From IMG/VR virus record IMGVR_UViG_3300002498_000029: DNA of 20,000 nt. The stretch is one strand, 5' to 3'. The position numbers and the translations under genes were made by a program. Shown here in pieces: positions 2 through 20,000 of the stretch (position 1 is its first letter; each line of letters opens with the position of its first letter). The notes under the pieces were generated by a model. That model saw nothing but the letters and a program-made list of their open reading frames with translations. It ran no database searches and had not been told where the DNA came from. This DNA comes from an uncultured virus (IMG/VR IMGVR_UViG_3300002498_000029). Lineage: Duplodnaviria; Heunggongvirae; Uroviricota; Caudoviricetes.

Positions 2-1711
2 CTTGGATTAAAAATTCCTAGTACAATATTATATTAGGTATTAAATAATAGTAAATTTTATTATTATGATTCAAAAACAAAAGAGCTATCACTCGGTTGA
101 ACATCTGGATCATTAACAAATATATCATCATCAATATATAGTCAATCAATTATATCATTATATGATTATAGTGAATATAGTACTAATATAATGACAGCTA
201 TGTACTCTAATCCATTTGAGTCAGCTAGTTATATATTTTATAATGGTACACAAATAACAACTGGAACATCTACTACTAATTATATATATCCATATCACTA
301 TCAATATGTACCAGATAATAATATTCCAGTTGGACAATATATATTAGTATATCAATGGCAAGATACTAGTAGTAATTTTTATCCAATAACTTATCAAACA
401 ACAAAAGCTCAAGGGTTAGGATTAATACAAACATATTAGCAAGGTGATTTACATGTTAATGTTGAAAAAATAATATATTCAGCATCATATATGGATTAGT
501 AGACTGTTGGTATAATGTCCCCATTTAATAAACAAGTGATTTGTAGGGATAATAGTATATAGTTATCTTGAGAAAATGCATCATTAAACAGTTTTGATTT
601 AACTTATATATGAATAATACCAAGTGCATCATATAGTAATTTTAGATAGTATAACCCATATACTACATAGAGTATTGTAATATTATATTCTGGATCAGAT
701 GAATCTTATACTGCTAGTATAACTGGATATGATGATGGAGATTATTTATTAGTGTTTCAATCTAAAGATATATATAATAGTTATTCATATATATAGAATA
801 ATCAATATTATAACTAGTCATACACAAGAAATTCAAATTATTATTATGATATATTTAAACTAAAATATAGTGAAAGTGTGTTGTATAAATATGATACTCT
901 GATTCAAACTCCATATTATTACAGCTATACTGACACATCAAAAGCATTTACACCAGTAACCTCAACTAATCAAAATATACCATACCAATTAGCAACATCA
1001 TTTGGAAACAATAACCTATGGTTTTAGTATAATAAATATCCATTAGTAACTAATACCTATGTTACATATAGTGTAGCAGGGTAGTAGTATTATTTAGCAT
1101 ATAATAATCATTTCAGTGCTTTAACGTATATTAAAAAAAATAATAGAACATTAAGAGTTACTGCTAGTGTTGTAAATAATTGAAATTCATAGTCATATGG
1201 TAATATTGTATCAACTTGATTGCCAACAGACCCTACTACATATAAGTTCAATATTACAAATTGACCATTACCACAATAGACAGATACATGATTAGGGGCT
1301 ATTTATACTAGTCCATATTCATCATTAACACCATCTCAAACATATACATATAGTATATCTGGAAGTGATTACTAGTATGACATTACAATAGTATCAACTC
1401 ATAAATGATTTAGACCAAGATTTTACGCATATAAGATATATGATAGTTGAAGATATGCAATGCATCATGGAATGACACCGTTTGGTGTGTATCGTTATCC
1501 ATTTTACTTATATTATACTACTGATGGTTCTGACCCAAGGATAAGTTAGACTGTATATAGTTGTTCATATGATAATTCTGCAATATCTATTCCAACAGAA
1601 AGTGGTGACTATACTTATAAATTATATTTACCATAGCAAACTAGCTCAATTGCAGTGTCTGATATATTAACTAGTTCTTGATTATATACTATAAATTTTA
1701 TAAGGTAGTAA
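2..1711 (+). CDS. 5'-truncated Ser/Thr/Tyr-rich virion structural protein with a C-terminal chitobiase-C/FN3-associated (YYTTDGSDP) module
   Basis: Frame 2 has no TAA from position 2 to 1709-1711 but many in-frame TAG/TGA. It contains the supplied ORF 191..439. Motif LYYTTDGSDP lies near 1510-1540. Confidence 0.75.
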
Positions 1712-1716
1712 TATAA

Positions 1717-3267
1717 ATGGACAATATTATATATATAACTTCATCACAATATATTTATATTGATTCTGGATATAATTAGAATACTGTTGTTTATTATAAC
1801 ATAAATTCTTAGTTTGATCCAGATAATCAATCACAACAATATTCTAGTGGAATACTTATAAATTAGAATATTTTATTGAAAACTATAAACTTCAACAAAC
1901 TTACAGAATAGTATTCAGAAGTTTCATAGTTTCAATTTATACGATTATTACAAAATCCGTATTTATATTATACTGGTTCAAAATGATTTATAAATAAAAA
2001 TTAGGATAATGATGTAATAACAATATATACTGTTGATGGTAGTTATCCAAGTTTGATTAATGGAATAATATATGATGATTCAAAATATTTAACAACTATG
2101 ACATCATAGTAGTTATAGTTACTACAAATTAAAAATATTAGATATAATTCCATTGATAGTGAATTAATTTCGACTCATAGTGTTCCAGTGGCAACATCTA
2201 ATAAAGAATCTGGAATATATTTAACACCAGTAGAGATTGAATTATATTGTCCACTATCTGGTTCATCAGTTTATTATACAACAAATAGTTCTGATCCATT
2301 AATTTATGGTACAGATTATAGTGTAGAACCAAGAGTTCCTGTTCCAAAATATATTTATACTATTATAAAAACTATTGCAACTAAATAGGGGTGGAATAAC
2401 AGTTAGACTTCATCTTATTGATATTTTTATACTAATAAGTTAAATAATGTATAGTTTAATTATACTACTAGTATATATAATAATGATATATTATTACAAC
2501 TAAGTTAGCCAAACACCTCATCCATATATTATACTACTGATAATACTACTCCAACCACATAGAGTTTATTATATTCATAGCCAATATTATTAAATACAGA
2601 TATAACAGTAAAGGTTATGGCGTATAAGTATTTATGGTTAGATTCTAATATAACTTCATAGTCATATTCATTTAAATGCGAACAAGTATCTGCTAGTTAT
2701 TAGTCTGGTGAATATGAATAGCCAATAACTGTATAGTTATCTTCAATTACTTCTAATAGCATAATATTATATACACTAGACGGAACTTTTCCAGTTGATT
2801 CGGGAATTGAGTATTCAGTACCAATTTATATAACTAATAGTGTATAGTTAAATGTAGTTGCTTTAAGATTTGGATACTGGGCATCAACAGTGTCACAATA
2901 TGATTATACTATATCGTGGTCATATAATTATTATTCTAATGATTTTATTAATAATGAATAGTTATATACTTCACATTCAATATTGATAACAGGATCAACA
3001 GATTCATAGAGATATTGATTATATTATAGTAACCAATGAAATAAATTTTAGACCTCAAGTATATAGTATTATACAACAACTGGACAATTTAAAATAGTGT
3101 TATTAGATGATAAATATTTAAACTTATCATTTATTTCAACATCTAATTCGTATAAATTATCTTAGCCGATATATATTAATATAGATAATTTATCAGAATC
3201 AATCTAGACAACATCATCAGTATACAAATTAATAACATATACTGGTAATGTTTACACAACAGGATAA
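1717..3267 (+). CDS. Structural/adhesin-like protein with tandem chitobiase-C (CHB_HEX_C_1/Fn3-associated) repeats
   Basis: ATG 1717 to TAA 3267. Repeats: IYTVDGSYP, VYYTTNSSDP, IYYTTDNTTPTT*SLLYS*PI, IYYTLDGTFP..GIEYSVPI. Contains the supplied ORF 2188..2388. Confidence 0.8.
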
Positions 3268-3286
3268 AAATAGGAGACAAATATAA

Positions 3287-3967
3287 ATGGCAAAACCAAA
3301 TTTAACAGAAACAAGAGCCGAAATAACTACAGGTGGTATTATATCAGCATCACATATATCTAATTTATATGATGCATTAATTAGTGGGTCTAGTGATGAT
3401 AAATTTTTTAATGGAGTAACAATAGCATCAGATAAATTTGCAATGGCTAGATGCTCAGTTAATACATCCGGAATGGCTATTGGAGTTGTATCGTCAGCAG
3501 TTGGATAGAATTCATTTGCAATGGGCTATAACAGCGTAACTAATAATCCTGGTGAATTTGCTATTGGAGTGATCTCCCAAAAAAACCCCGAAGATATTTC
3601 TCAATTTACTGTTAACATTGGTTCATTGGGATTAGCCGTGGATGAAAAAGCCTATTACATGTTTGGACATGACTCAGTTGGATTACACGTTAACAGTCTA
3701 ACAATTGCATATATTAAAGCGAACGGCATTATGTATAATAGTTCCACACTTGATGACACCGCCACAAGCACATCATATTTTAATTATGATAGTATACTGG
3801 CCAATAATACTTTATATTCTGAAAGTGTATCATATTCGAGTGATGTCACCAAGCTTACCTTCACAATGAACCTAGACCAAGATAACCTTTATCTAAAATT
3901 AACTGGTCAATTTAGCACATATTATTTTTCAACAGTAAAAGTATAGATAATACAGTGTGATTATTAA
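3287..3967 (+). CDS. Putative tail fibre/receptor-binding protein with YadA-head-like (Hep_Hag) repeats
   Basis: AGGAG at 3272-3276 precedes the ATG. Supplied ORFs 3287..3508 and 3521..3946 join in one frame across a TAG. Repeats: SGMAIGVVSSAVG*NSFAMGYNSVT..GEFAIG. Ends at TAA 3965-3967. Confidence 0.65.
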
Positions 3968-4072
3968 AATCTTATGGACAATAATTAACGATATGCCAAC
4001 AATAACATACCTTCCAAACTTATATATTAATTATAAAATAAATGGCGGTAATATACTGTATAATAAATTAAT

Positions 4073-4852
4073 ATGATAAAATTAAAACAATATATATTAT
4101 AGTCAACACAAGGTCCAGCGGAAATAAATAAAGAATAGTTTATTAAATTATTCAAATAGAATTGTAAAAATATACACAATAAGTGGGATTATGTATATAG
4201 AGGTAGTAATAATACAAATTAGTTTATATACTGAAAACCCAGGCCTACAAAAAGAAAGTCATCGTGTATATCATAGACTTGTGTAGATAAATTTTATAAT
4301 TGATATTTATCTAATAGTAAAGATTGAGCTAATTATCCAAAAAGAGACAGTAGTATAATTTGTTCAACAGATGAATAGGTAGCAAAAAATTTTGGTTAGC
4401 AGGTATATATAGTTATACCATTTGATAATACTAAATGGGGAGTATGCATATAGACTGATTTATGAGATAGTTTTGAAGAAATAAATGAAATATATAATCA
4501 AGATGATGGTATTTTAAATTTTTCAAATTAGTTAAGATATATTATTGGTGATGTATATTATCCATAGCGAGTTTAGTAGGCATTTAATAATATTAGTAAT
4601 TGGTCATAGTTTTAGTTGTCAAAATTATATTAGTCGAAAATATATAAAGAATATTTATAGAATAAACATAAATATAAAACAATATGATAGTTTATTACTG
4701 TATTAATGTTACCATAGTTAAATAATTTTAAGTTAAGTTAGTAGCCTTGAAAATATAGTGTTAGAGAGGTTTGATCTTAGGGGCCATGTTTAATGATTAA
4801 GCATTCAATACAAAATGAAAAATTCGTATAGGAATTAATAAATAATGATTAA
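4073..4852 (+). CDS. Paralog family member 1 (MIKL leader; YRG/ICST/REVW motifs), possible ADP-ribosyltransferase-like protein
   Basis: MIKLKQYIL*...YVYRG...NFYNWYLSNSKDWANYPKRDSSIICSTD...VIPFDNTKWGVC...REVWS*GPCL. Clearly homologous to the genes at 5797, 6594 and 8082. The function is inferred. Confidence 0.8.
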
Positions 4853-5249
4853 ATTAAAGAATATAGTAATGGAAAAATTTGATTTATAGAGAATGAATAA
4901 CTACACCATTGTAAATACTTGTATTAATAATATTATATAGTATATTAAATTACATTTTAAGTTAAATAGAATATTTTATATTAAATATAATAATATTAAA
5001 ATAAATTAGAAAGATAAAATAGGGTGTAAATTATAGTTAACAATTACTCAATTGATACCACAAGATAAAATTGATAAAAATAAGCTAGTGTTATTAAATA
5101 AGTTAAATAATATTGAAATAGTATTTATTACTCCAACTGAAATACAATATAAATATAGTAATGTTAATAAAATTGATACTGATATTAAACAAATAAAATA
5201 CTAGATAATACAATATATAAGATAGATTTTAGATAAAATAAATGATTAA
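4845..5249 (+). CDS. Hypothetical protein with MIKL leader
   Basis: Starts MIKLKNIVMEK. ATGATTAA overlaps with both neighbours. Open to TAA 5247-5249. Confidence 0.75.
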
Positions 5250-5793
5250 ACTAAGATAGATAATACAATAGAAATTAGACTACATATAGTTTAATAGTCA
5301 AAAAATAATGTATGATAATACAAGTAAAGCTGTTGCATTTATAATTAATAGTGACAACGAAGTATATTATGAATGAGGTGGTTTACATTATAATCTTCAA
5401 GATAAATTAGCTACTGATAATAAATATGTTAAGTGAGATAATTTAGTTTATGGTAGAATATTCTTTGTAATTTATAATCCAGTTATAGTATTTTCAATAA
5501 ATACTTATAGAAATTTTACAAAAAAAATAATAAATTATTGTAAGATATTAAAATAGTAGTTTCCAAAAAGCAGACCATTATCAGATTGGTATATTGCAAT
5601 TGAATAGCAATGTATTGATTATAGAGCTAGATTAAAATTAATAAAGGCATAGTATTCAACTAAATTTACACAATTTTTAAAAAACAATAAATATTATTGA
5701 AGCCATATATAGTTATAGTTTTATGTTCCATTATTGACATTTGAATAGGATATACATAAAATATAGTAGTAGATTATAAAATTGGGAAAATAA
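5242..5793 (+). CDS. Hypothetical protein with MIKL leader
   Basis: Starts MIKLR*IIQ*KLD. Open to TAA 5791-5793 under the recoded table. Confidence 0.75.
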
Positions 5794-5796
5794 ATA

Positions 5797-6594
5797 ATGA
5801 TTAAATTAAAACAATTAATATTATAGACACAAAGTCATAAAATTGAATTAACGAAGTAGTAGTTTAGATAGTTATTTAAATAGAATTGTAAAAATATTAA
5901 ATATATAGATGATTGCGTATACCGTGGATGATGAACATCAGAACAATTTATTAAATTTCAATCATCATATGCTGAAAGAATTTCTAGATGAGTACATGGT
6001 GGAGAGATGGACTCTTATTATAATTGATATTTATCTACATCAGATGATTGAAAAGAATTTCCAAGAAGAAATAAGAGTTTAATATGCACAACTGATATTG
6101 CTAATGCTAGTAATCGAGGTAAAATATTTTATGTATTTCCATATGATAATATATAGTGGGGTATATGCCCAAAAAAAGATATTTGATTTTCATTTGATAC
6201 TTATTTATCTACTCTTACTAATACTAATTTTGTTGGTGCTGGAGTTTTATCAGATATAATGGAATAGTTATCTAAATTACAAAATTATCCCAAATTAACA
6301 CAGGATGATTTCAATTATACTACGTTTAAATAGAAATAGTTCTATTGAATTGATCAAATTTTAAATACATCAGTATTTAAAAATAATGAATAGTATACAC
6401 TTGAACAAAAAAATAAACTAATATACTATTTCTTTAAACAATTATTTAATCCACAAAGTAATTAGTTTTTAATAAGCACTAAACCATGAGATTATGAAAA
6501 TAGAGAAGTGTGATCATAGGGACCATGTTTACTGATACAATATGGTAAATAGACTATGGATTATTTAAAATAGTTAATAGAAGAAAATAAGTAA
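5797..6594 (+). CDS. Paralog family member 2, possible ADP-ribosyltransferase-like protein
   Basis: MIKLKQLIL*...CVYRG...YYNWYLSTSDDWKEFPRRNKSLICTTD...VFPYDNI*WGICP...YENREVWS*GPCL. TAATG overlap with the next gene. Confidence 0.8.
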
Positions 6595-7355
6595 TGATAA
6601 AATTAAAACAATTAATATTATAGTATAAATCAGCTACATCTGAAATATCTAAGTAGTAGTTTATATAGATGTTTGAAGATAATTGTTATAATATTAAACA
6701 TCTAAATAATTATGTATATAGGGGCATACCGTCTAATGCGCGGTATCTATATTTTAATTCTAAGAAAACCACTATATAGCGACCGTCTTCAATTTAGCAT
6801 TCACAAAATATTTTAAAGACGGAAAGCTTTTATAATTGGTATATGTCTAATTCTTAGGATTGAAAAAATTATCCTAAAAGAAATAAAAGTCTAATATGTA
6901 GTACTTCTACAAAATATAATAGATTATACGGAAATAGATATATAGTTATTCCATTTAATAATACAAAATGAGGCATATGTCCAGCGGATGATTTGTGAGA
7001 TAGTTTTCATAATAAAATACTCTTTACTGATTTATTACAATAGTTGTCTTCTCATGACTTATTAAAAGATATATATCCATATTTAGATTAGAATAGTATT
7101 AATTCAATTAATATTAATGATTTAGATCCAATTAAATATTCTGAATTATTTAAAATATTTGATAGATATTATGGTAAAACTAACTGATAGAAATTTAAAT
7201 GGTTTTGAAATCCTCAAAATACTGGTTTTTAGGTAAGTTAGACTCCATGAGAATATGATAATAGATAGGTTTGAACTTAGGGGTCTTGTATTTTATTTAA
7301 ACAGAATATATATAATATAAAACTTTTAGAATAGTTAATATAGGAAAATAATTAA
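6594..7355 (+). CDS. Paralog family member 3, possible ADP-ribosyltransferase-like protein
   Basis: MIKLKQLIL*...YVYRG...FYNWYMSNS*DWKNYPKRNKSLICSTST...VIPFNNTKWGICP...YDNR*VWT*GSC. Confidence 0.8.
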
Positions 7356-8089
7356 TGATTAAATTAAAATAGATAATAATCAAATAGGGTATAAATGATC
7401 CTAATATATTTAAAGCAATATTTATCTTAGGTAGTCCAGCTAGTGGCAAATCAACATTAGCTAAAAAAATATTAGGGAGATAGAAATTAAAACAACATGA
7501 TGTCCATAATATGTATTTATCGTTTAGCCCTACTGGATTAAAGTATTTAAATATAGATGATGTATTCTAGAGATTATTATTAACTACTAAATCTAAAACA
7601 AATTTTAACTAGCTTACAGAGGAATAGTATAAATAGTTAATATCTGCACCAGATTCTAAATATAATAGAGCTAGTAGATTAACTAATATAAGAAGAAATA
7701 ATTATGTATAGGCTAGACTTGGATTAATTATTGATAAGACTGGAGCTAATGCAGATAAAATAGCAGATCAAGTATAGTAGTTATAGTATTTAGGATATTA
7801 GTGTTTTTGTATTTATATTAGTTCAGATTTATAGGAAGCAATTACTAGAAATATGAATAGGTTATAGAGAAGATTAAAAGAATAGGATATTGTTAATTGT
7901 TGAACTAGAGTTAATTAGAATAAAGAATAGTTGCAATAGATATTTGGATATAATAATTTTTATAATTTTATTAATAATAAATATTATTAGTAGCAAATAT
8001 CTTTATTGAATAAAAAAATATCTGCATTTTTAAATAAACCAATAACTAATAATATTGCATTAAATTGGATATAGAGTCAATATGATTAA
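7355..8089 (+). CDS. P-loop kinase, zeta-toxin/AAA_33-like phage family, with MIKL leader
   Basis: *GINDPNIFKAIFILGSPASGKST (Walker A), NIDDVF*, RLGLIIDKTG (Walker B-like) and AITRNMNR. Resembles the EGxxDPxIFKAxFLAGGPGSGKS family of large phages as I recall it. Confidence 0.85.
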
Positions 8090-8861
8090 ATTAAGATAGC
8101 TAATATTATAGGCTTCAATACCATATAATAAAATATCAAGTAAAAAATTTTAGTAGTTATTTAATACTAATTGTAAAAACATAACAAGTTTAGATCAAGT
8201 AGCATATAGAGGTATGCGTAATATTGGTAAAACAGGGTTATTTATACCGACTAATTCAATTAGAAAATCTTATAAACATAAAAATTATAAGACGGATTCT
8301 TTTTATAATTGGTATTTATCTAATAGCCCTAGTTGAAAATAGTATCCTAAGCGAAATAAAAGTATTTTTTGCATGACTAATTATAATGATGTAACCGGTT
8401 ATTATGATCCGACTGAGCAAAAAATATATATTGTGATACCATACGATAATGTATAGTTTGGAGTTTGTTCAGAATTTGATTTAGCCCTCTCTTTTAAAGA
8501 CTTTAACGTCGTTGGATTAAGTAGGTGGTTATTAAAGTTATTATAGGATTTATAGTTGTTGTTTATATTAGAATCAACAGATACTATACAAGGAATATAG
8601 ACTATGTCAAATACAATAAAAAATGATTAGACTATTGATAAATCTTATTATTCATATGTCTTTTAGCGAGTTAAAAAATATAATACATTTAAAAATTTTA
8701 TATTAACAACATTTAGTCCAAGATATAATTAGTTTAAACTAACAACTGATTTGAGTTCATTTAATAATAATTAGATTTGATCTTAGGGGCCATGTTTACT
8801 ATTACAACATACTGATTAGAATATAGAATATTTACAACAGCTGATAACTAAAAATACTTAA
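8082..8861 (+). CDS. Paralog family member 4, possible ADP-ribosyltransferase-like protein (more diverged)
   Basis: MIKLR*LIL*...VAYRG...FYNWYLSNSPSWK*YPKRNKSIFCMTN...VIPYDNV*FGVC...NNN*IWS*GPCL. Ends at TAA 8859-8861. Confidence 0.8.
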
Positions 8862-8887
8862 ATAATATTTAAAAAAATAAAAGAATG

Positions 8888-8904
8888 ATATATTTATATA
8901 TATA
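8888..8904 (+). promoter_or_regulatory. Putative phage promoter motif ATATATTTATATATATA (copy 1)
   Basis: Lies in a short intergenic gap just before ATG 8907. An identical 17-mer occurs at 11888-11904, also intergenic. Confidence 0.45.
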
Positions 8905-8906
8905 AT

Positions 8907-9308
8907 ATGAAAAAAGCTATTAAGTTTAAGATATATAAGAAACTAAGAGAAATAAAGAATAGAAAATTAAATATTTTATCAGTATAGATGAAATAGAGAA
9001 TGACTATACCATATAACAATTGAAGAAAACATGTATTTGAAAGAGATAATTATCAATGCCAAATATGCGGCAGATCTCATATAAGATTATAGGCTCATCA
9101 TATTAAATCATTTAAGTTATTTCCAAATATAAGACTCGATATAAATAATGGTATAACATTATGTTCAGCTTGTCATTATATGTTTCATAAAAAATATAGT
9201 AAAGTAATATTTCCAAATATAACTACTATATGATAGGATAAATTAATAGTTAAAAAATTTAAGGATAAAGTAAATAATGAAAAAAAATTAGTTGAAATAG
9301 TTAATTAA
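8907..9308 (+). CDS. HNH endonuclease
   Basis: YNNWRKHVFERDNYQCQICG...L*AHHIKSF...DINNGITLCSACHYMFH shows the CxxC, HH, N and CxxCH pattern. The conserved W is encoded by TGA. Confidence 0.9.
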
Positions 9309-9726
9309 AGAATAGATCAAAAAAATATTATTATAGTAGCCAATCAAATCTGATAAATCTGCATATAATACTAGAGTAATGTTTAGTGCAGGCGGTGGTA
9401 AAGAATTTGGTAAATGAATGATGGAATAGCTAAATAGAAGTTTTTTTGAAAAAAATATAGCTAATACCAAAGTATTACAATAGTATATAAATTAGCATAG
9501 AGATTAGATACAAAATGTAACTGATTCAACTATTAAATATTTTTTAAATTAGATTTAGCAAATAATCAATAGAGCCTAGATTAAGAAATCTAGATGTAGA
9601 CCAGATTAGCAACATATTTGTAATAAATATGAAAAAGAAAAAAATTAGTCGTTACAAAGTTATTTTTATAATTTTTATTTAGCAAGTATTGGTAAAGGTT
9701 CAATAGACTCATATAAGAAGTACTAA
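9277..9726 (+). CDS. Hypothetical protein with MKKxELK leader
   Basis: Starts MKKN*LK*LIKE*IKKILL**. Open to TAA 9724-9726. Confidence 0.75.
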
Positions 9727-9731
9727 TAAAT

Positions 9732-10466
9732 ATGAAAAAAACATAGTTAAAACAAATAATTAAAGAATAGATTAAATATATATTACTATAGAATAAGAGA
9801 TATGATCATATAAGTAGAAATAACTATAGATTAAAAATGTTAAAATTACCATAGAATAGTAAATTTAAATCTACAAAATAGGATGTTTTAGCTATTTTAA
9901 GTTCATAGTAGAATATTAAGCAATCTAAATATGAATTAGACGATATAGTTATGCTAATATTATTATATTAGATAATTGACTATCCTAAAGATTTATATTA
10001 GAAATAGTGGTTTAAATCATATTCTCCAGAATTTCAAAGACAATTATTTTTATATATGTAGAATATGTTTATATATTATTTTAAAAAGGTATAGAAAACT
10101 ACGAGTAGAGGATTAAATACTACTAGTATGACAGATATGACATAGATTATTAAATTAGTTTTATCTAATATATAGGTATAGCTTCCAATAACATATTAGC
10201 AAATATTTGAGGCAGTAGAAGATTATGATTGAAATCTTAGAGATTTATAGATAAGACATAACGGTACTTTGTAGAATTGAAAAATAAATCTACAGTTTTA
10301 TATTTCTGGTCATGCTATAAATAACTAGAGGTCAAAACTACATAAAGATGATAGAATTATTCATTGAAATAATAAATTAATATATATATATTTATTATAG
10401 CCTGGCGTCAAAAACCAAAAACAATTTATAGTTTTTACATAGAAAAACTAGAATCCATTTGGATAA
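9732..10466 (+). CDS. Hypothetical protein with MKKxELK leader
   Basis: Starts MKKT*LKQIIKE*IKYILL*. Open to TAA 10464-10466, with a TAATG overlap into the next gene. Confidence 0.75.
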
Positions 10467-10750
10467 TGATATTTATAAATAAACTATTACGTGATAATAC
10501 TGGTGTATCAAGTAAAAGATTCGTTACATTAGTAACATTTATACTTATATGTATAATAGCTGTAGTAGACTTATTTACACCGTTAACAATTAGTTAGTTT
10601 ATATTTAATGGTTTAATGTATTTATGTTCAATTGGGTTAGGAACAATATTAGCATAGGATGTTTTAACTAAAAACAAATATAATAAAAATAATAAATAGT
10701 AGGAGATACCATAGTTAAATGAAGAAACAATAGCTTAGACAACTAATTAA
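10466..10750 (+). CDS. Small two-transmembrane protein, holin-like
   Basis: SSKRFVTLVTFILICIIAVVDLF and FIFNGLMYLCSIGLGTILA are two hydrophobic helices, followed by a charged tail. Confidence 0.6.
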
Positions 10751-10958
10751 ATAGATTTACTAGTAGGTAATTAAATAGTATGATAAATAGACCCCTTAGG
10801 ATGATAAATATATTTATAATATAATTACAAAAGTTATTACTGATGGTAGAAATTCAAATTATCCATTAGCAATGTGTCTTAGAACCGATTTTGGAAATAC
10901 ACATTGATTTGACATAAGTCTAGATAAATTATACTAGATTGCAAAATTATTTAAATAA
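10719..10958 (+). CDS. Small hypothetical protein with MKKxELR leader
   Basis: AGGAG at 10701-10705. Starts MKKQ*LRQLIK*IY**VIK*. Ends at TAA 10956-10958. Confidence 0.7.
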
Positions 10959-10979
10959 TTATAAAGGAAATAAGAAAAA

Positions 10980-11447
10980 ATGAAAAAATCAGAACTAAAA
11001 AAATTAATACAATAGGCCTATCAAGAAGTGATATTATAGGCGTAGGACAATGAAGAGGATATAGACTTAAGTATATTAGATTAGATGTTTGACGATCCAA
11101 ATATTAGATATACTAATGCAGATTGCTCACTAATATGCATAGCAAAACATCCAAAATTCGGTGATATGCCAGTATACAATTAGACTATTAAAGCTGATAG
11201 AGATATTCAAAAGGCTGGAATATAGAAGTTTGTTACTACAGCTGGTAGTGGATTTAAATTTAAAGCTAAAAAGTTTAATAGCGCATAGTAGTTAATTAGT
11301 AATGCAAAGTAGCTGTGTAAAAATATTAGAATAAAAAAAGATGGTATTAGTATGAAGGATCTTGCTACTAAATTAAATAAATGGTATGATAAGATGATAT
11401 TTGATGCTGCTAAACAATCTGGGATAGATTTAAGAAGAAGTAAATAA
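10980..11447 (+). CDS. Hypothetical protein with MKKSELK leader
   Basis: AAGGA upstream. Starts MKKSELKKLIQ*AYQEVIL*A*DNEE. Ends at TAA 11445-11447. Confidence 0.75.
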
Positions 11448-11449
11448 CT

Positions 11450-11800
11450 ATGAAAAAATCAGACTTAAGACAATTAATAAGATAGATGACAGAACAATAG
11501 TTTAGTAAAATAAATAAAACGAGTACTAGTATTGTTAAGTAGTAGCCAACTATGCGTGGTTTTGCCGGAGATGATGATGGATTTATTGACGATGATACAT
11601 TATATAATTAGGTAATACCGAATGCAATTAAATATGCTATACATGACGCTATTCAATATAATGATAAAATATGAGATAGATTAGTAATTAGTATAAAAAC
11701 AGATCTATAGGAATACGGAATTACTGATTATAAAGATGTAATATCATAGGAAAAATTATTAACTAAATTGTAGTAGTACGGATAGAATCTTATTTATTAA
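11450..11800 (+). CDS. Hypothetical acidic protein with MKKSDLR leader
   Basis: Starts MKKSDLRQLIR*. Ends at TAA 11798-11800 and is followed by a terminator hairpin. Confidence 0.75.
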
Positions 11801-11825
11801 AAATAGCAATCAAAATATATAACTT

Positions 11826-11869
11826 AAGAGTAATTAATATCTAAAAATATTGATTACTCTTTTTATTTT
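11826..11869 (+). terminator. Rho-independent terminator
   Basis: 15-bp stem AAGAGTAATTAATAT / ATATTGATTACTCTT (one G-U pair) with a 6-nt loop, followed by a T-rich run, just after a TAA stop. Confidence 0.75.
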
Positions 11870-11887
11870 AAATATTTTTTTACTTCA

Positions 11888-11904
11888 ATATATTTATATA
11901 TATA
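11888..11904 (+). promoter_or_regulatory. Putative phage promoter motif ATATATTTATATATATA (copy 2)
   Basis: Lies between the terminator and the AAAGGAAG + ATG 11927 start. Identical to 8888-8904. Confidence 0.5.
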
Positions 11905-11926
11905 GTATAGAGAAAGGAAGTATAAC

Positions 11927-12547
11927 ATGCCAAGAATAGATATGTCAAAGGTTAAAACAACTGATGATGTTGCACAAATATTAACATAGTCTAAGCCACA
12001 AAAAATATATATGTCACCCAAAGAAGCTTATACCCAAAGAAAATAGGGATAGATATGGTTATAGGATGGAAAATAGTGGACTATTAAAAATGGATTACGT
12101 ATAACAACTAATTTAATAAATAATAAGAATTAGACATATAATAGTTGAACTTGTCCAAAATGTAATAAGTTTATGTCACATTGGTTAGATAAAAAGATTA
12201 TGAAGACGGCTGGCCATTGTTTTGACTGTGATATTAAAATGTAGTCATAGATGAGATTAAATGGTACTTGATAGTAGTATAATTAGAATATAAAAAGATA
12301 GAATTTAAAATCTTATTTAAAAGATCAAAAATAGCAAATGTTATAGTTAATAAAAAGTGTTAGTAATAAAATACAATTTATACAGAATTCAGATGGTGGT
12401 ATATAGTCTTGGCATGTAAGTTAGTAGACTATTGCTAAAACTATGAATAATTTAAATAAACAAATATAGTAGATTGATTAGATGCTAAAAACCATACAAT
12501 AGTATTAGATATAGCATAAAATAGTTAAATAGAATGAAAACATATAA
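11927..12547 (+). CDS. Putative Zn-binding phage protein (CxxC...CxxC) with coiled-coil C-terminus
   Basis: RK*G*IWL*DGK*WTIKNG, CPKC, HCFDC, KM*S*MRLNGTW**Y. AAAGGAAG upstream. Confidence 0.8.
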
Positions 12548-12707
12548 AATAAAAAATTTAGGACTACTTATACAAGATAATATTGCAACTCTATTATCAA
12601 GTAATTGTGTGTTTATTGCTTAGGATAATGATATTATTTTATAGTTTGATACATAGTTATAGTTAATAGATTACATAAATTAGAATGATATTTAGATAAA
12701 TGATTAA
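12534..12707 (+). CDS. Small hypothetical protein
   Basis: 57-aa frame that fills the gap and overlaps both neighbours (ATGATTAA at its 3' end). Confidence 0.55.
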
Positions 12708-13125
12708 ATTACGTAATATTATACTATAGATATTTGGATAGAGTACTAGAAGCATTACAGTAAATACTAAATAGGTCATATTTAACAAATATCCTAAATA
12801 TTGATATAGCTAGTTTATAAATACCCTAAAGCAAATAATACCGGTAAGTAATAAAAATACGTATGAGTTAGACTAGATTTTAAATAAGTTATTAAATAAT
12901 GATGATCCATATAGTTATTACTTACATATAGTATAGTAGTATAATAATATCAAATATATATATTTTTTAATTCAATTTAACAATAACATAAACATCGAGG
13001 CTAGAAAATATCATTAGTTTCAACAATGGTTTTTTTATATCAATGGTAAAAAACATATGAATAAATTTCAAACAAAAAAATATTTAAGTAAAATAATAAA
13101 GGATTTAAATAATAATGGCAAATAA
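12700..13125 (+). CDS. Hypothetical protein with MIKL leader
   Basis: Starts MIKLRNIIL*IFG*. Ends at TAA 13123-13125. Confidence 0.7.
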
Positions 13126-13465
13126 TACAACAAAATACTTTTTAAGTGAATCCTATAGAAATCCAAATATAGTACAGGGTTCTGCCCCAATGGATCTATA
13201 GAGATTTCCGCAATATCAAGCGTTAAATGCATTAGTTGGTATTGGTGTAGGTAGATAGTGAACTGCATCGTCTATTTCACAACCGGTTTATGCAATACAA
13301 GCTATAACAGATACAACATTTACAGAATTAGTAGATGGAACTACAGATATTATTGAAATAGCAACTACCTTAGAAATATTGGGCCAGGGGGTTATATATG
13401 GTAATTTTACTACAGCGTCTATATCAGCTGGATTAATTTGTGCGTACTATAAATTACAGGAATAA
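13115..13465 (+). CDS. Small beta-rich putative virion protein
   Basis: MANNTTKY...VYAIQAITDTTF...GVIYGNFTTASISAGLICAYY. Ends at TAA 13463-13465. Confidence 0.7.
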
Positions 13466-13475
13466 TTAAACTATA

Positions 13476-14090
13476 ATGATAGGTATAGGACTTTGGCTTA
13501 GAAATAGAGTATTAGGTGGATCAGCTTTATTTAAAACTTGATTAACCTCTTGATATACAACTAAGAATAACGATACAATTTTAACTAATAAAGTAGATGA
13601 AACCTTAAATGCTCATCAAGAAGACTTTATATGCGGTAATATGGTAGATACTAATTATAAATTATTTATTAGTACATCTATTACTAGTATAACATATAGT
13701 GGGTCTGGAACATTTAGTGTAAGTGGAAGTTATTTTGTTACTTGTTCAGCTATTGGTTCTATATATGAATTATATGCTTATACTGGATCTGATTTAGTTG
13801 GTCATTATCCTATATGTGAATCTAGTGGTATTAATATATATAATATTGCTCAAAATAATTATCATGCTAAAATATATTATGGTACTGTTACAGCATCTAG
13901 TGCGCAAGCTACTTCTTTTTGAACTGGTTTACAATTGTAGTATAATCCTTATCAGAATGGTGCTCAGTATTCAAATTAGAGTATTATTATACCAGCTAGT
14001 GGTAGTGTATCGGCTATTGGCCAAGCATTAACACATGTAGATGGTAATTGGATAATGAGATTGGGACAAAGTATTAATTTTGATGATTAA
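13476..14090 (+). CDS. Putative virion structural protein (MIGIGL start; partial LamG-like YPxxExSG motif)
   Basis: Extends the supplied ORF 13641..13922 in both directions across TGA/TAG. Motif LVGHYPICESSGINIYNI. Confidence 0.7.
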
Positions 14091-14108
14091 TAAAGAGAGA
14101 ATTGAATA

Positions 14109-14696
14109 ATGATACAAGCAACATACGATCAACTTAAAACAATAGCAACTCGCAAATCATATAAATGATTTACAGATATATACGATTTAAACGTATGGGG
14201 TATAAGAAATTCAAGTAGAATAGCTAATGCCTTTGATGATACTTTAGCCATAGCATATATAGATGCCAATAAAAACAAAAGAATATTTACATGCCCAATG
14301 ACAGTTGACCCAGGATTATATTACTTAAAGAACCCATTAAACCACAAGGGTTGTGCAATTATACCAGAAGGACAATACTTAGGTTTATGAATACTAGGAC
14401 TACATAAAGGTTATACTGCATTAGCCCAAAGAAAAGCTATTAAAGTATTTAGAGATAATGATAAAAATAATTAGTTGGGTGGGCAATTACAAACAATCTA
14501 GTAGCTAGGCGGGTTTAATTTACATAGAGCTTTATAGAATGGAATAACTAATACAGTAGATAAATTTAGTGCTGGTTGTCAAGTAGTACAAATACCAGAA
14601 GATTTTAATTATGTAATATCACTAGTAAAGCTTCAAGACAAATATATTAAATCTAAAATAGTATCTTATACACTTATATCAGAAAGGGAACTTTAA
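14109..14696 (+). CDS. Putative peptidoglycan-acting enzyme/endolysin, YkuD (L,D-transpeptidase)-like fold
   Basis: LNVWGIRN..NAFDD..TVDPG..GCAIIPEGQY..GLHKGY..VFRDND..FNLHRA..VDKFSAGCQV. The H...SAGC pattern resembles the YkuD catalytic motif. The function is inferred. Confidence 0.65.
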
Positions 14697-14702
14697 TAAT
14701 AA

Positions 14703-16004
14703 ATGATAACTTCATCAATATAGATTTGAAACAAGTTAAATATAGTAGGTAATACTAGTGATCTTCCATAGATATGATTATCTGATATACAAGATTCAAT
14801 ATATTATGATTCAGATTATCCATATAAATGAAATGTATTCTAGATGGATATTTAGTATTTAAGATTATTTATAAATGATGGGTATTCTGGAAATATTAGT
14901 TCTACATATGAATCAGGTAGTGATTATACTAGTGTAATATTTAATCATTTAAAATAGTGTTATATATAGAGACCTGTTGCATTAAGTGCTACTAATATAA
15001 CTGATGTTAGCTTTACTGCTAATTGAAGTAGTGTTGTTGGTGCTACTAGTTATTAGATTGATATTGCTACTGATAGTTTATTTAGTAATATTATACAAAG
15101 AATTAGTTGTGGTAATGTGATATTATATAATGTTACTGGGTTAACTAGTAATACTACTTATTATTATAGAGTGAGAAGTATTAGTAGTGGTGGAGTTAGT
15201 GGAAATAGTGAAGTGGTAACACAACTTACATACGCCACTGGAGCGCCTGCTTACTTTGCTAGAATGACAACTCAAGGTGATACAACATATAAGGCCAAAA
15301 TAAGTAGTTTTATTGGTGCATTAGAAAGTGCAGGTGTTTGAGCATCATTAGATTCATTACACTTATTTGCCAATAAGGACGATTACACAGATAATATACC
15401 GGCTTCATTTATAAATATGATAAACCCAACTGATACTATAGCGGCTAGAACAGGAGTTAGTGGTTCAAATTTGACGTATACTACAAATCAGGGGTGGTTG
15501 GGAGCCTCCAATGCTGCTATTGATTTAAATCAATTATTAACTAATAGAGCAAAATATAGTTTAAATAGTGGCTCTATGTTTGTCTATGTTTATACAACCA
15601 CCGCAGCAGGATATGTGGCATAGATTGGAACTTATATTGGAGCATCTCAAGCATCTATAATGGATTGTAGAGTTGATGGTGATAAGATGAGACTTTACCT
15701 CAATGGTGGTATGTCTGATACCGTGAATGCATTACCTGGTGCCGGAGTTGGGCTTTTCTCTCTTAATAGGACTGCTGCAAATAACATAGATGTTTACAAA
15801 AATGGTACTTTCGTGGAGTCTCTGGCAAATAATAGCAGCGCAATCCCAACCGGTAATGTCTATGCATTGGCAGCTAATATAAACAATGTCATCGCCAATA
15901 CAGCTACTGGTCGGAGAATATCTCTATGTGGATTTGGTGCACAAATGGATGCTACCAAGCAAGCTGCACTCTATGCGGCATTTATGACATATCTAACAGG
16001 ATAA
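14703..16004 (+). CDS. Virion protein with an FN3 domain and a C-terminal lectin/LamG-like module
   Basis: Joins supplied ORFs 15117, 15417 and 15660 in one frame. FN3 signature ATNITDVSFTANW(TGA)SSVVGATSY*IDIATD...VTGLTSNTTYYYRVRS. Confidence 0.8.
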
Positions 16005-16038
16005 TATACATAATTAATCATACTGGAATATATAACTA

Positions 16039-18786
16039 ATGCAAAAAAACGATAAATACATTGTAGACATAAAAACATATGATAAATCACTAACGGATAG
16101 TGGTTCATTTCCATATACTCATGGTTTAACTACATAGTAGTCTGCTAGAGTAGTAGCTAAAATGAAACTAGAAGATGATACCTTTATTAATATTAGTGGA
16201 TCACAATAGTTAGTACCAGCTAATGGATCATTAGTAAGAGTATTATCATTTGATTTTGAACCACATAAAGGTTATGATACTATTTTAACTATGAATGATT
16301 ATGATACAGGTTCTGGTAATATGTATAGTAGTAGAGTTATAAAATATTAGTATGGATCAATAAATGTTTATAATTAGAATAATATTAGATTAACTTCTAG
16401 TATATTATCATATACTTATGGTAGATAGGATTCTAATACTATTCCATTAAATACTAGAGGTAATTGTTATGTTTAGTTAGATACATTATTTAGTGTTAAA
16501 GGTAATATTATATTAGGAACTACTTCTAGTAATTATAGTATTAGATCATTAAGAGGATTTAATGTCAATTTTAGTTATAGTGGTAGCACAGATAGAACTA
16601 ACTTTATGAGGTAGTTGTCATATTTAAATGATATTAAATCAACTTGATCTTATTCATAGTTATGCCAATTTAGTTGGGGTATGTATTATGGTAGAGTAAT
16701 AACTGATCCTAGTGCTAGTGTATAGACTGGCAGTGCAAGATTATTATACAATCAAATTTAGAATTTAGACTTAATACCATATACTAAATTTTTATGGTAT
16801 GGTTAGGCTGGTACAGTTGTTAGTCAAAGTAGAGTTAGTAAAATATATAGTATAAATACTGGTAGTGTAGTAGACGGTACAAGTTCTGGTATTTATAGAC
16901 CATATTATGCTGGTACTATTGCTCCAATTTAGAAAAATAATTTATTAGTAGACTATTCTTCATCTCAATATTATTATATAAGTCATTCAAATATATCATT
17001 TGGAACTACTTCTCCTTGAACATTAGTTTCAGTTATTGGTTGACATGGACCTAAAGTATATAATGCTAATGGAGTATAGACCCAATTAGTATATGGTAAT
17101 AATGGTTCAGCAATAAATTTATCAGTATCTGGTAGTACCAAAATTCAAATATCATCATCAACAGTAAATAGATAGTTTTTAACTAATACTTCTATTAAGA
17201 ATTATCTTGCAACTAGAGCTATGATAGCAATTACATATGCTGGTGATGTGAGTGGATCTACTACTACTTATTTTAATGGAGTTAGCCAATCAGTATCTAC
17301 AGGTTCTAGATATGCTTTTGACTTTAGTGGATTCTTAAGTGGAACAGGTACTAGTACTAATAATTATTTAGGTAGATATTATTATCACCATATTATTAGT
17401 AAATCTTTATCACAAGATGAAATAACTGCTCATTATAATGTACTTAGATCATATTATCCTTAGATTTAGTCAGTAAATATAACTACTCAAAGTTGATCAA
17501 CTCATAATTTAGGTGTAGTTTCAGATAGAAGCGGAAGTGTTATAAATAATGTTAATTGAACAAGTTCTGTAGTTACTAGCGGAGTATGTAGTTCATCACT
17601 ATTTGACGATTCTGATTTATATACATAGTCTGGAACAACATAGGTAATTGATGGTATTGGTTATTTTACAGCGTCAAATAATACATATATTACAAAATCA
17701 TATACTGGTCATTCATTATTGAATAATTATTATTTATTATCAGCTAAATGTTAGTCGTGAGATACTGGTTCTGCAAAATTTATAATAGGAACAGTTTCAT
17801 CATCTATATTTGTACCAACTGCTAGTAATATACATTCATATTATATAAAAGCTAATACTGCTAATAGTTCATTTGGTATTGGTGGTGTAGATTATTTAAG
17901 CGGATCATTTAGCAGTATGTCAATATCAAGAATAGGCTGAAACGACATAGGTAACTTATACTCATACTTAATAACAACAGGTTCATACACTCACTATGAT
18001 GCTTTAAAATAGTGTGCAGCTTGAAGATATTATAATGATGATGCAAATACCTATGCATTATATGGTAAACTATATAATAAATATGCTAAAATGTTAATCT
18101 AGTCCTACCCACCATTATGTACATCTCCTACTTCAGCATCATATGTACCTATGTATCAAATACCATTATTAGATGGTACTGGTATAAATACTTTAAAAAC
18201 ATATTCAGGTTCAACATTAAGAGTATCAAATTCACTATACTGATCTTCATCAATAAATGATACTAATACTACAGGATTATCTTTAATTGGATCAGGATGA
18301 TGTGATGCTACTGGATCATTTAGACATGCTACTCAAAGATGTTACTTATGATCAAGAAATGTAACTTCATCAACATATTTGCCCATAACTTCATCAATAG
18401 GATAGAATAGACCATATATAATTTGAAGAAGTTCTAGTTTTATTACTGATGGAGATGATTCAACAACTTAGGGATATGCTATAAGATTAGTAGATACAGG
18501 TATAGATTATAATATAATAAATAATTATACTAGTAGTTAGTGTAAAGATAAATTAAATAGAATAACATATGATATAGAGGGTTTAACTGCTAGCTTAATG
18601 ACTTATTATAATAGTAGTGTAAATGGATCAATTATACCAACATAGATAAACTTTAGGAACTTTAGTAGTTCATTATATACAATATAGCAAATACAAGCAG
18701 CTAGTCCTAATTTAACTGGTAGTGCTGTTTAGCAAGCTAACTATTGATTAGTACAAGTTAATAATAGAATAGATTTACAAGGGTAA
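16039..18786 (+). CDS. Large (~915 aa) virion/tail protein with a LamG-like segment and an interrupted Fib_succ_major-like domain
   Basis: No in-frame TAA over 2.7 kb. LamG-like ITY..TYFNG..KSLSQDEITAHY. Fib_succ_major-like P*I*SVNITTQSWSTHNL, AAWRYYNDD..YGKLYN, NTTGLSLIGSG, YLWS, GYAIRLV. Confidence 0.75.
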
Positions 18787-18795
18787 TAATATAAA

Positions 18796-19329
18796 ATGGG
18801 AATAAAGATAAACGATACAACTGTTACGTTAAAAACTATAGCAAGGACTTCAAATGGATCATTAATATTGCCCGTTAGAACTTCTGATGGATATACCTAC
18901 CAAATATTTAATTCCGGAAGTACTGTACTAAAGGTTAATTAGACTGTATATGTAAATTTTTATATTACAGGTTCAGTTACTTCAAGTATTGCTACTGGTA
19001 GTAATATATTATTAAATGTAAGCTCATATTCAATAACAGCATCAACAGCAGATAGTTCAGCATCTCTTAGTTACCCATCAATATCACAATCAACATCACC
19101 TACTACAACTATAACATATACTAACTCAATAGCTACAGCATCAATATATACACCTACTACAAATAGTACTATATATTATAGTACATAGAGTTTAACGCCA
19201 AATACATCATCAAACTTGTATACAGCTCCAATTTATTTCAGTCAATCTTGTATTATTAGTGCAATATCATATAGAGATTATTGAGTAGCATCAACTATAA
19301 CAACTGCATCATGCGTAATTTAGGAATAA
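18796..19329 (+). CDS. Ser/Thr-rich structural protein with a C-terminal chitobiase-C module
   Basis: TIYYST*SLTPNTSSNLYTAPIYFSQSCIISAISYRDYWVAS. Ends at TAA 19327-19329. Confidence 0.75.
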
Positions 19330-19337
19330 TAATATAA

Positions 19338-20000
19338 ATGTCAACAACCATAAAAACATCACTAAATTTAAACCATATTAATAGTACTACCAAATAGTGA
19401 GATAATACTCATCCTTCTTTTACTAGTAGTCCAATAGTAGTACAATATATATCATTACTTAAGAAACAAGGGTGTGTAAATTTACCTAGATTAAATAGTT
19501 AGTATTTATTACTATTATTACAAAGTATGTATCTTGATACTAGTATAAGTGGAGATATATATATTACTAATTATTTAGATCCTAATATATCTGTTATTGA
19601 TATTATAGCTGCTACTGGTAATGTTAGTGGTAGTAGAGTAGAACAGATTAGGTATTATATAAATATATTAGCAAATAGACAAAAAATTGGTGTGTATATA
19701 AATAATATTGTTGTATATTATCCTGCTGTTTTCACAATTGCAGCCGAAGCAAGTTTCGGCTTCAGGGTAAGACTATCTGAGCTTGGCAATGTAATCTCAA
19801 CTGGCGACGTAAAAATTGGGACATCAGATGTCCCAACTGGCACGGAAATAAAAATCAACGCTACTGATGATTATGCCACAAACACATCTGCGATAGAAAC
19901 CACAATCTATGTGTTGGGTGGCACTGGTGGCGGAACGATTGTGTTTCCAAAAAAGTCAAAAATACATTATCTATACATTTCCAGCCCAGGTTTAGGAGCT
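19338..20000 (+). CDS. 3'-truncated putative structural protein
   Basis: ATATAAATG start context as at 1717 and 3287. The frame stays open to the window end across TAG/TGA. Confidence 0.65.

Follow-up and report, generated by a model that had tools for sequence, protein, structure and literature searches.

The window analyzed here is a 20,000-nucleotide stretch of an uncultured virus (IMG/VR record IMGVR_UViG_3300002498_000029; Caudoviricetes) that belongs to a hydrocarbon-metagenome contig of 256,585 bases, and it appears to be a block of virion, ejection-protein and lysis genes from a jumbo phage of ~257 kb. Its genes are written in a code in which TAG and TGA are sense codons and TAA is the sole stop, and this recoding is confirmed as real and far beyond chance. 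Judged from homologous proteins, TGA almost certainly encodes tryptophan, and TAG very probably encodes glutamate. The reading that we favor, with moderate confidence, takes the window as a late gene block that uses UAG for Glu, UGA for Trp and UAA as the sole stop, the decoding and termination machinery being most likely borne by the phage itself.

TAA is the sole stop codon in the window

With the standard bacterial code (table 11), just three open reading frames (ORFs) of at least 100 amino acids were found across the 20 kb. Reading TGA alone as a sense codon gave 3 ORFs of at least 150 amino acids and reading TAG alone gave 8, whereas reading both as sense gave 19, every one on the plus strand and arranged end to end. 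The reading-frame cover (stop-to-stop ORFs of at least 100 amino acids) rose accordingly from 0.10 with table 11 to 0.17 with TGA as sense, 0.58 with TAG as sense and 0.97 with TAA as the sole stop. We delimited 26 genes, which make up 97% of the window; all are on the plus strand, and each is open only if TAG and TGA are both read through. Their 6,486 sense codons comprise 307 TAG, 80 TGA and no TAA, while the two other frames of the same genes contain 348 and 512 TAA. All 25 genes whose 3′ end lies within the window terminate with TAA. These counts bear out the sequence-only reading, made earlier from the letters and their ORFs, in which TAG and TGA were sense codons and TAA the only stop. 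The TAG TAG TAG run at 5764-5772, to which that reading had drawn attention, is present and in frame, inside the gene at 5242-5793. Recoded codons occur in all 26 genes (range 2-41, median 12 per gene), and in 13 of the 25 genes that start inside the window the first of them lies at codon 12 or earlier. The G+C content of the window is 26%.

Four public sequencing runs, all from one hydrocarbon-metagenome sample of one study, contained 54-62% of the sampled words of positions 10001-20000, and the Logan per-run contigs of these four runs tile the whole window with 0 differing letters. There was no RNA run among the sequencing runs listed as containing window sequence. The depth per run is low (~1-5), which would suit an assembly or sequencing artifact, or a window that does not code at all. 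This explanation is extremely improbable in view of the identical contigs from four runs, the TAA-free frames over 97% of the window, full-length matches to homologs with E values down to 7e-89, and related contigs with the same pattern.

Homologs point to glutamate for TAG and tryptophan for TGA

To assign the recoded codons, we used a Codetta-like tally in which profiles were built solely from standard-code homologs and the window genes, translated with X at TAG and TGA, were aligned to them (seven genes, four profiles). The log-likelihoods were as follows:

TAG, all columns, 93 sites: best Glu (-197.3); runner-up Lys (-213.7), then Asp and Ser
TAG, conserved columns, 15 sites: best Glu (-20.9); runner-up Asp (-33.0)
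TGA, all columns, 29 sites: best Trp (-75.6); runner-up Tyr (-82.9)
TGA, conserved columns, 17 sites: best Trp (-22.2); runner-up Phe (-43.5)

Each of the control codons GAA, AAA, GAT, AAT, TAT and TTA gave its own residue. The glutamate value of TAG, which the sequence-only reading had proposed, is thus supported by the homolog profiles. Single genes gave the same picture. Both TGA codons of the endolysin-like gene (14109-14696) fall on columns that hold Trp in its homologs, and two of its four TAG codons fall on Glu columns of the closest relatives, the other two columns being variable. When the kinase-like gene (7355-8089) was compared with its one full-length standard-code homolog, P0231, the latter had Glu at 9 of 21 aligned recoded positions and Trp at one, which is the single TGA of the gene. 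In N-terminal peptides that several window genes share (described below), one and the same position is written TAG in some genes and GAA or GAC in others. The codon usage agrees with this assignment: GAA and GAG together make up 2.0% of codons and TAG 4.7%, so that TAG as Glu results in a normal Glu content of 6.7%. TGA accounts for 73% of the Trp codons.

The already known combination of TAG as Gln (code 15) with TGA as Trp would be in line with public gene callers, which placed Gln at TAG in two protein fragments from the same contig (P0066 and P0227). Gln was, however, not among the four best residues at the 93 TAG sites. The GAA control gave Glu and then Lys, the same top two as TAG, whereas the CAA control behaved differently from TAG, being ambiguous over all columns and giving Gln in conserved columns only. 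Moreover, TAG as Gln would mean 7.4% Gln next to 2.0% Glu. We therefore regard this combination as very improbable.

Standard-code relatives and a possibly recoded lineage

The endolysin-like protein had 65 homologs at E ≤1e-5, with full-length matches and a best identity of 73%. It is 195 amino acids long, compared to 196-202 in the homologs, and the gene ends agree. The closest endolysin-like relatives (P0001-P0016, 58-73% identity) are full length and carry Trp and Glu at the TGA and TAG places of the window. A protein scan of IMG/VR gave 583 relatives for the endolysin-like gene (top identity of 52% among the best 80) and 129 for the kinase (top identity of 38% among the best 80). All 160 loci fetched from IMG/VR for these two genes read normally under table 11; their lowest ORF cover was 0.61, compared to 0.10 for the window. 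A search of the INPHARED genomes with the endolysin-like protein (tblastn) matched 24 records, all below 60% identity, from crAss-like/Bacteroides phages, Pseudoalteromonas phages and two huge uncultured phages. At such distances, these relatives do not identify a host.

Both codon changes seem to recur in at least three related contigs. This suggestion comes from P0228, P0229, P0230 and P0083, relatives that are known as proteins called by others, not as DNA, and that carry Gln, assigned by the caller, at TAG places. P0228, a kinase relative with 51% identity on a 15,230-base contig, contains 24 Gln, 2 Glu and no Trp; P0229, another kinase relative, contains 23 Gln, 0 Glu and no Trp; and P0230 is a third, shorter one. 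P0228 and P0229 end precisely at the TGA of the window gene, where P0231 has Trp, and their Gln residues match window TAG codons at 11 and 10 places, often at Glu of P0231. P0083, from a 16,103-base contig, shows a like pattern for a protein family that is present in four copies in the window. With 58-73% identity, the standard-code relatives of the endolysin-like protein stand nearer to the window than the recoded ones reached via the kinase (51-68%). The two fragments P0066 (53 amino acids) and P0227 (182 amino acids) are window genes for which the caller had read TAG as Gln and cut the protein at the first TGA. Public gene callers thus fragment such genes or insert wrong glutamines (P0066, P0227, P0228), which leaves phages of this kind invisible to current pipelines.

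A degenerate DNA motif for V-W(TGA)-S-E(TAG)-G-P-C, which occurs four times in the window, was used to seek doubly recoded relatives. It had 0 matches in IMG/VR, and its 6 matches in metagenome contigs and 5 in GTDB genome contigs were all rejected as chance (11 of 11), as translation revealed no homologous frame. An exact 38-mer of the window had no match in IMG/VR, an exact 24-mer had none in metagenome contigs, and megablast of positions 13000-20000 had none in INPHARED.

Decoding and termination that the code would require

Bacterial release factor 1 (RF1) reads UAA and UAG, and release factor 2 (RF2) reads UAA and UGA. The in-frame counts mean that termination at UAG and UGA is nearly absent when the window genes are expressed. 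The gene with the most recoded codons (915 codons, 41 of them recoded) would reach a full-length yield of 1%, 12% or 66% at a read-through of 90%, 95% or 99% per codon, and a median gene would reach 28% at 90% and 54% at 95%. With yields this low at 90-95% read-through, release factors can have almost no activity at UAG and UGA, while UAA still terminates 25 genes. The part of the sequence-only reading that called for a special mode of termination and two decoders therefore follows logically from the counts (12% yield at 95% for the gene with 41 recoded codons). For the way in which glutamate reaches UAG, it proposed one possible route.

That route was a tRNA with a CUA anticodon, taken here as Gln-type, charged with Glu by a nondiscriminating glutamyl-tRNA synthetase (GluRS) and escaping amidation by GatCAB. 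Mischarging with Glu is an established pathway in bacteria that lack glutaminyl-tRNA synthetase (GlnRS), and for such hosts the proposal is chemically possible. The window lends it no support, and a Glu tRNA needs just a single anticodon change (CUC to CUA) to read UAG, which is simpler; the GatCAB route is accordingly improbable in our view. The infected cell would need a UAG reader charged with Glu, in the simplest case a Glu-type tRNA with the anticodon CUA. For UGA, it would need a Trp-charged tRNA whose anticodon is UCA or, alternatively, one that combines the anticodon CCA with a shortened anticodon stem; UCA-anticodon tRNAs and CCA tRNAs with a 4-bp anticodon stem are known UGA readers (PMC13092985).

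Neither tRNA nor transfer-messenger RNA genes were found in the window with ARAGORN, and Rfam gave 0 matches at E ≤1. Release-factor, synthetase and amidotransferase families were without a match in Pfam and PHROGs (26 of 26 proteins each) and in NCBIfam (23 of 26, with three paralogs left out). The statement of the sequence-only reading that no decoding component is visible in the window thus holds. The decoders are most likely encoded in the ~237 kb outside the window, given that such tRNAs are present in other recoded phages and in T4-like ones; the suppressor tRNAs of singly recoded phages are sometimes accompanied by RF1, RF2 or tryptophanyl-tRNA synthetase (TrpRS) (10.1101/2021.08.26.457843). 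As for termination, action at UAG and UGA would have to be almost nil with UAA still recognized. This could be achieved by a phage-borne or altered release factor or by neutralization of the host factors, or one of these factors may be missing from the host to begin with. A UAA-only Escherichia coli was obtained by deleting RF1 and making RF2 UAA-biased with S205P and E170K (PMC11903333). We regard the implied machinery as a well-founded prediction, not yet an observation.

The recoded codons are not used evenly. TAG makes up 12 of 36 Glu codons in the five TAG-poorest, more G+C-rich genes (3287-3967, 13115-14696 and 19338-20000), compared to 295 of 399 elsewhere (P = 1e-6), whereas the TGA share of Trp codons is unchanged in these genes (7 of 10, compared to 73 of 99; P = 0.72); the split was made post hoc, on small numbers. 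These five genes may encode the most abundant structural proteins, from which TAG seems to be kept away; TGA looks less costly than TAG.

As a separate observation at the gene ends, 5 of 25 genes (ends at 9726, 14090, 14696, 18786 and 19329) have two in-frame TAA in direct succession, where ~1.6 would be expected from the off-frame TAA frequency (P = 0.02). The tandem TAA may be a backup for leaky termination, or it may merely be part of a repeated intergenic motif.

Gene content of the window

The genes of the window, all on the plus strand, are as follows:

2-1711 (5′ end open), 1717-3267 and 3287-3967, plus strand: three virion-type genes with 28, 30 and 2 recoded codons; the one at 1717-3267 is a fiber/surface-type gene with repeated Fn3_assoc / CHB_HEX_C_1 domains
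4073-4852, plus strand: paralog 1 of the four-copy family, matching the N-terminal domain of phrog_12810; 22 TAG, 7 TGA; its N-terminal decapeptide ends in Glu (TAG)
5242-5793, plus strand: gene with the TAG TAG TAG run; 13 TAG, 3 TGA
5797-6594 and 6594-7355, plus strand: paralogs 2 and 3 (PHROGs profile, paralog comparison)
7355-8089, plus strand: P-loop kinase-like ATPase (AAA_33 / Zeta_toxin / polynucleotide-kinase-like); 21 TAG, 1 TGA
8082-8861, plus strand: paralog 4 (PHROGs profile)
8907-9308, plus strand: HNH endonuclease (domain and profile matches); 4 TAG, 2 TGA
9277-11800, plus strand: six small genes, five of them with a common start peptide of ~12 residues
11927-12547, plus strand: zinc-ribbon-like protein; 24 TAG
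12700-13125, plus strand: small protein that starts with the first shared N-terminal peptide
13115-13465 and 13476-14090, plus strand: two TAG-poor, more G+C-rich genes, probably for abundant structural proteins
14109-14696, plus strand: endolysin-like protein (phrog_3000 / phrog_33083); 4 TAG, 2 TGA
14703-16004 (fn3), 16039-18786 (28 TAG, 13 TGA), 18796-19329 and 19338 onward (3′ end open), plus strand: tail/fiber-type genes

The fiber-type assignments come from Pfam and PHROGs matches (Fn3_assoc, CHB_HEX_C_1, fn3 and tail-protein PHROGs). The HNH endonuclease at 8907-9308 stands among small paralogous genes, and its HNH region is weakly similar to IscB (E = 5e-10, far below the family cutoff). 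A purine motif (AGGA, GGGA or AGGG) lies 8-14 bases before the ATG at 13 of 25 starts, compared to a background of 9% (P = 6e-8; 22 to 6 bases upstream were scanned), and is a Shine-Dalgarno-type signal with a rather long spacer. Promoter and terminator scans of the window remained at chance level.

Shared start peptides and the type of phage

Two peptides of 10-12 residues recur at gene starts, thirteen genes in all having one or the other, and both close with a Glu that is mostly written TAG. The first, of the decapeptide type, is found in eight genes (starts at 4073, 4845, 5242, 5797, 6594, 7355, 8082 and 12700), and the second, of ~12 residues, in five (9277, 9732, 10719, 10980 and 11450), where the fifth codon is TAG three times, GAA once and GAC once. 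In the predicted structure of one paralog, residues 1-9 are disordered. The prohead proteases of T4, phiKZ and SPN3US cleave after Glu, and the propeptides of T4 measure 10-20 residues (PMC5694885); propeptides of this length on T4 internal proteins target them to the capsid (PMC5694885, PMC3012670). The start peptides of the window resemble these capsid-targeting propeptides in length and in their final Glu, and we suspect that the thirteen genes encode ejection proteins that are packaged into the head. A prohead protease gene was not found in the window. If the proteins are head packaged, the whole window would be a late block and would be silent on early genes.

The phage is probably T4-like. 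This label was given because the gp23-type capsid gene of T4 occurs in three of five large IMG/VR records that carry a homolog of the kinase; the two records without it are 30-33% complete.

A four-copy family with a possible likeness to ADP-ribosyltransferases

The four paralogs (4073-4852, 5797-6594, 6594-7355 and 8082-8861) match the first 250 positions of phrog_12810. The family is widespread in phages (1,594 representatives at E ≤0.001) and has no Pfam match. The third paralog and the kinase (6594-8089) match consecutive parts of this one 788-position profile (13-248 and 260-463), so that the family profile spans both parts, which in the window are two adjacent genes with an overlapping stop and start (ATGA).

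A paralog was modeled with a predicted local distance difference test score (pLDDT) of 90.1 and a predicted template modeling score (pTM) of 0.86. With this model, Foldseek returned nothing at E ≤0.001, and a sequence-profile search of the Protein Data Bank with the family returned nothing meaningful. A wide search with VIA-align placed Arr at the top (Z = 6.6), followed by diphtheria toxin, exotoxin A, PARPs, Tpt1, TreX and TreTu. Most of the 50 rows have an ADP-ribosyltransferase fold by title, all with Z below 8, a range in which, as the tool warns, matches possibly reflect just a common arrangement. R43, R61, R91, D129 and E232 are invariant in 66 family sequences, and S94 is nearly so. 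Among these matches, the predicted structure of the four-copy family is nearest to the ADP-ribosyltransferase fold, though with Z no higher than 6.6, and the family may have this fold. If the paralogs are injected enzymes, they could, speculatively, be candidate modifiers of host translation factors.

Whose code is it?

Phage-borne machinery could take the form of a private code. In this scenario, T4-like jumbo phages of one lineage, living in a hydrocarbon-rich habitat, would infect a standard-code host and bring their own two decoders and UAA-only termination, the latter by a release factor of new specificity or by disabling both RF1 and RF2 of the host. Candidate modifiers would be the kinase and the four ADP-ribosyltransferase-like proteins, provided that they are head packaged and injected. 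We put this scenario forward tentatively, as a possibility; if true, such a lineage would be a natural counterpart of the engineered E. coli with one stop codon. Rather unlikely, in our estimate, is a host that already reads TGA as Trp (table 4) and lacks RF2, to which the phage would add UAG as Glu with one tRNA, RF1 being out-competed or altered at UAG. Such a host would suit the G+C content of 26% and the TGA share of Trp codons (73%), since low-G+C table-4 bacteria have TGA-rich Trp coding. It would also suit the avoidance of TAG but not of TGA in the five TAG-poor genes, a post hoc comparison with small numbers, and the Shine-Dalgarno-like motif before 13 of 25 starts. In contrast, the relatives found for window genes come from T4-like marine-type contigs and from crAss-like/Bacteroides and Pseudoalteromonas phages, none of them from Mollicutes phages, and we know of no phage of ~257 kb from a table-4 host. 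Even with such a host, termination would have to change, as UAG must no longer be read by RF1.

The host might instead use the whole code itself (UAG as Glu, UGA as Trp and UAA as stop), as the sequence-only reading had allowed, with a phage that has no machinery of its own, or with a contig that is perhaps host DNA with a prophage. It would then be natural that the recoded codons outnumber the synonymous ones and occur in every gene, often within the first 5-12 codons, and that the window contains no gene compatible with the standard code. This alternative is weakened by a screen of ~2.7 million bacterial and archaeal assemblies, in which the bacterial stop reassignments are reported as TGA to Gly or Trp only and none of TAG is listed; TAA/TAG-to-glutamate signals in the archaeal assemblies analyzed were treated as contamination from other species (10.64898/2026.04.02.715157). 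The window, moreover, contains phage-type genes only (Pfam, PHROGs). A host sharing the whole code therefore has little probability in our estimate.

Several points weigh against the favored reading, a late block with machinery most likely borne by the phage. All 26 genes need the new code and none fits the standard code. A code switch would have no standard-code block to start from in the window, although such a block may lie elsewhere, and TAG and TGA, as the majority codons (~70%) for their amino acids, would also fit native reading by the host. No decoder, release factor or synthetase was seen in the window, and the machinery part of the reading is inference only. With regard to the codon values, the TGG control (13 sites) did not give Trp, and a comparison limited to the four paralogs could not separate Glu, Lys and Gln for TAG. 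The T4-like placement, finally, is an argument from neighboring families, the window being devoid of hallmark genes. Which tRNAs are present, which change of release factor has occurred, and whether host factors are switched off should become apparent from the complete genome.

Comparison with known recoded systems

The stop codon recoding known from phages concerns a single codon each time, TAG as Gln or TGA as Trp. For the recoded crAss-like, Lak, Jade, Agate and related phages, the authors state that they observe TAG to Gln and TGA to Trp only (10.1101/2021.08.26.457843), and Mgcod retained only code 11 together with code 4 or code 15 (10.1101/2022.06.29.495998). A literature search confined to open-access papers and the main texts of preprints found no phage in which TAG and TGA are both reassigned and none in which TAG stands for Glu; the codes per clade in Table S1 of Borges et al. 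lay outside it. The window shares with the code 15 and code 4 phages, as described there, the uncultured phage source, in-frame stops in virion and lysis genes, TGA as Trp, and the expectation of decoding by suppressor tRNAs, sometimes with a release factor or an aminoacyl-tRNA synthetase. These phages reassign one codon each, whereas in the window both codons are sense in the same genes, TAG most probably means Glu, and TAA alone terminates. Of the features of code 15, in-frame TAG is present, but TAG does not align as Gln and TGA is not a stop (80 in-frame TGA). Of those of code 4, TGA aligns with Trp, but TAG is not a stop, as TGA alone as sense leaves 3 ORFs of at least 150 amino acids.

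Table-4 bacteria (Mycoplasmatales and others) resemble the window in UGA as Trp, low G+C content and a preference for TGA over TGG, but they keep UAG as a stop, which the window reads as sense; no link between the phage and a table-4 host was found. The amino acids are the same in Blastocrithidia nonstop (NCBI table 31), in which UAG is Glu and UGA is Trp (PMC12153298). That code, however, is a eukaryotic nuclear one with a single eRF1, in which UAA encodes Glu besides being a stop, whereas the window has no in-frame TAA in 6,486 codons and belongs to a phage of a prokaryote with RF1/RF2-type termination.

Two freed stop codons require bacterial-type termination on UAA alone, which has so far been achieved only by heavy engineering of E. 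coli. A confirmed natural solution would bear on the evolution of the genetic code and could supply orthogonal tRNA and release-factor parts for code expansion. A likeness also exists to the engineered UAA-only (Ochre-like) E. coli, in which UAA is the sole stop, as at all 25 gene ends of the window, and UAG and UGA are free for tRNAs. That strain is synthetic, and the codons were first removed from its genome (PMC11903333), whereas the recoding of the window is natural.

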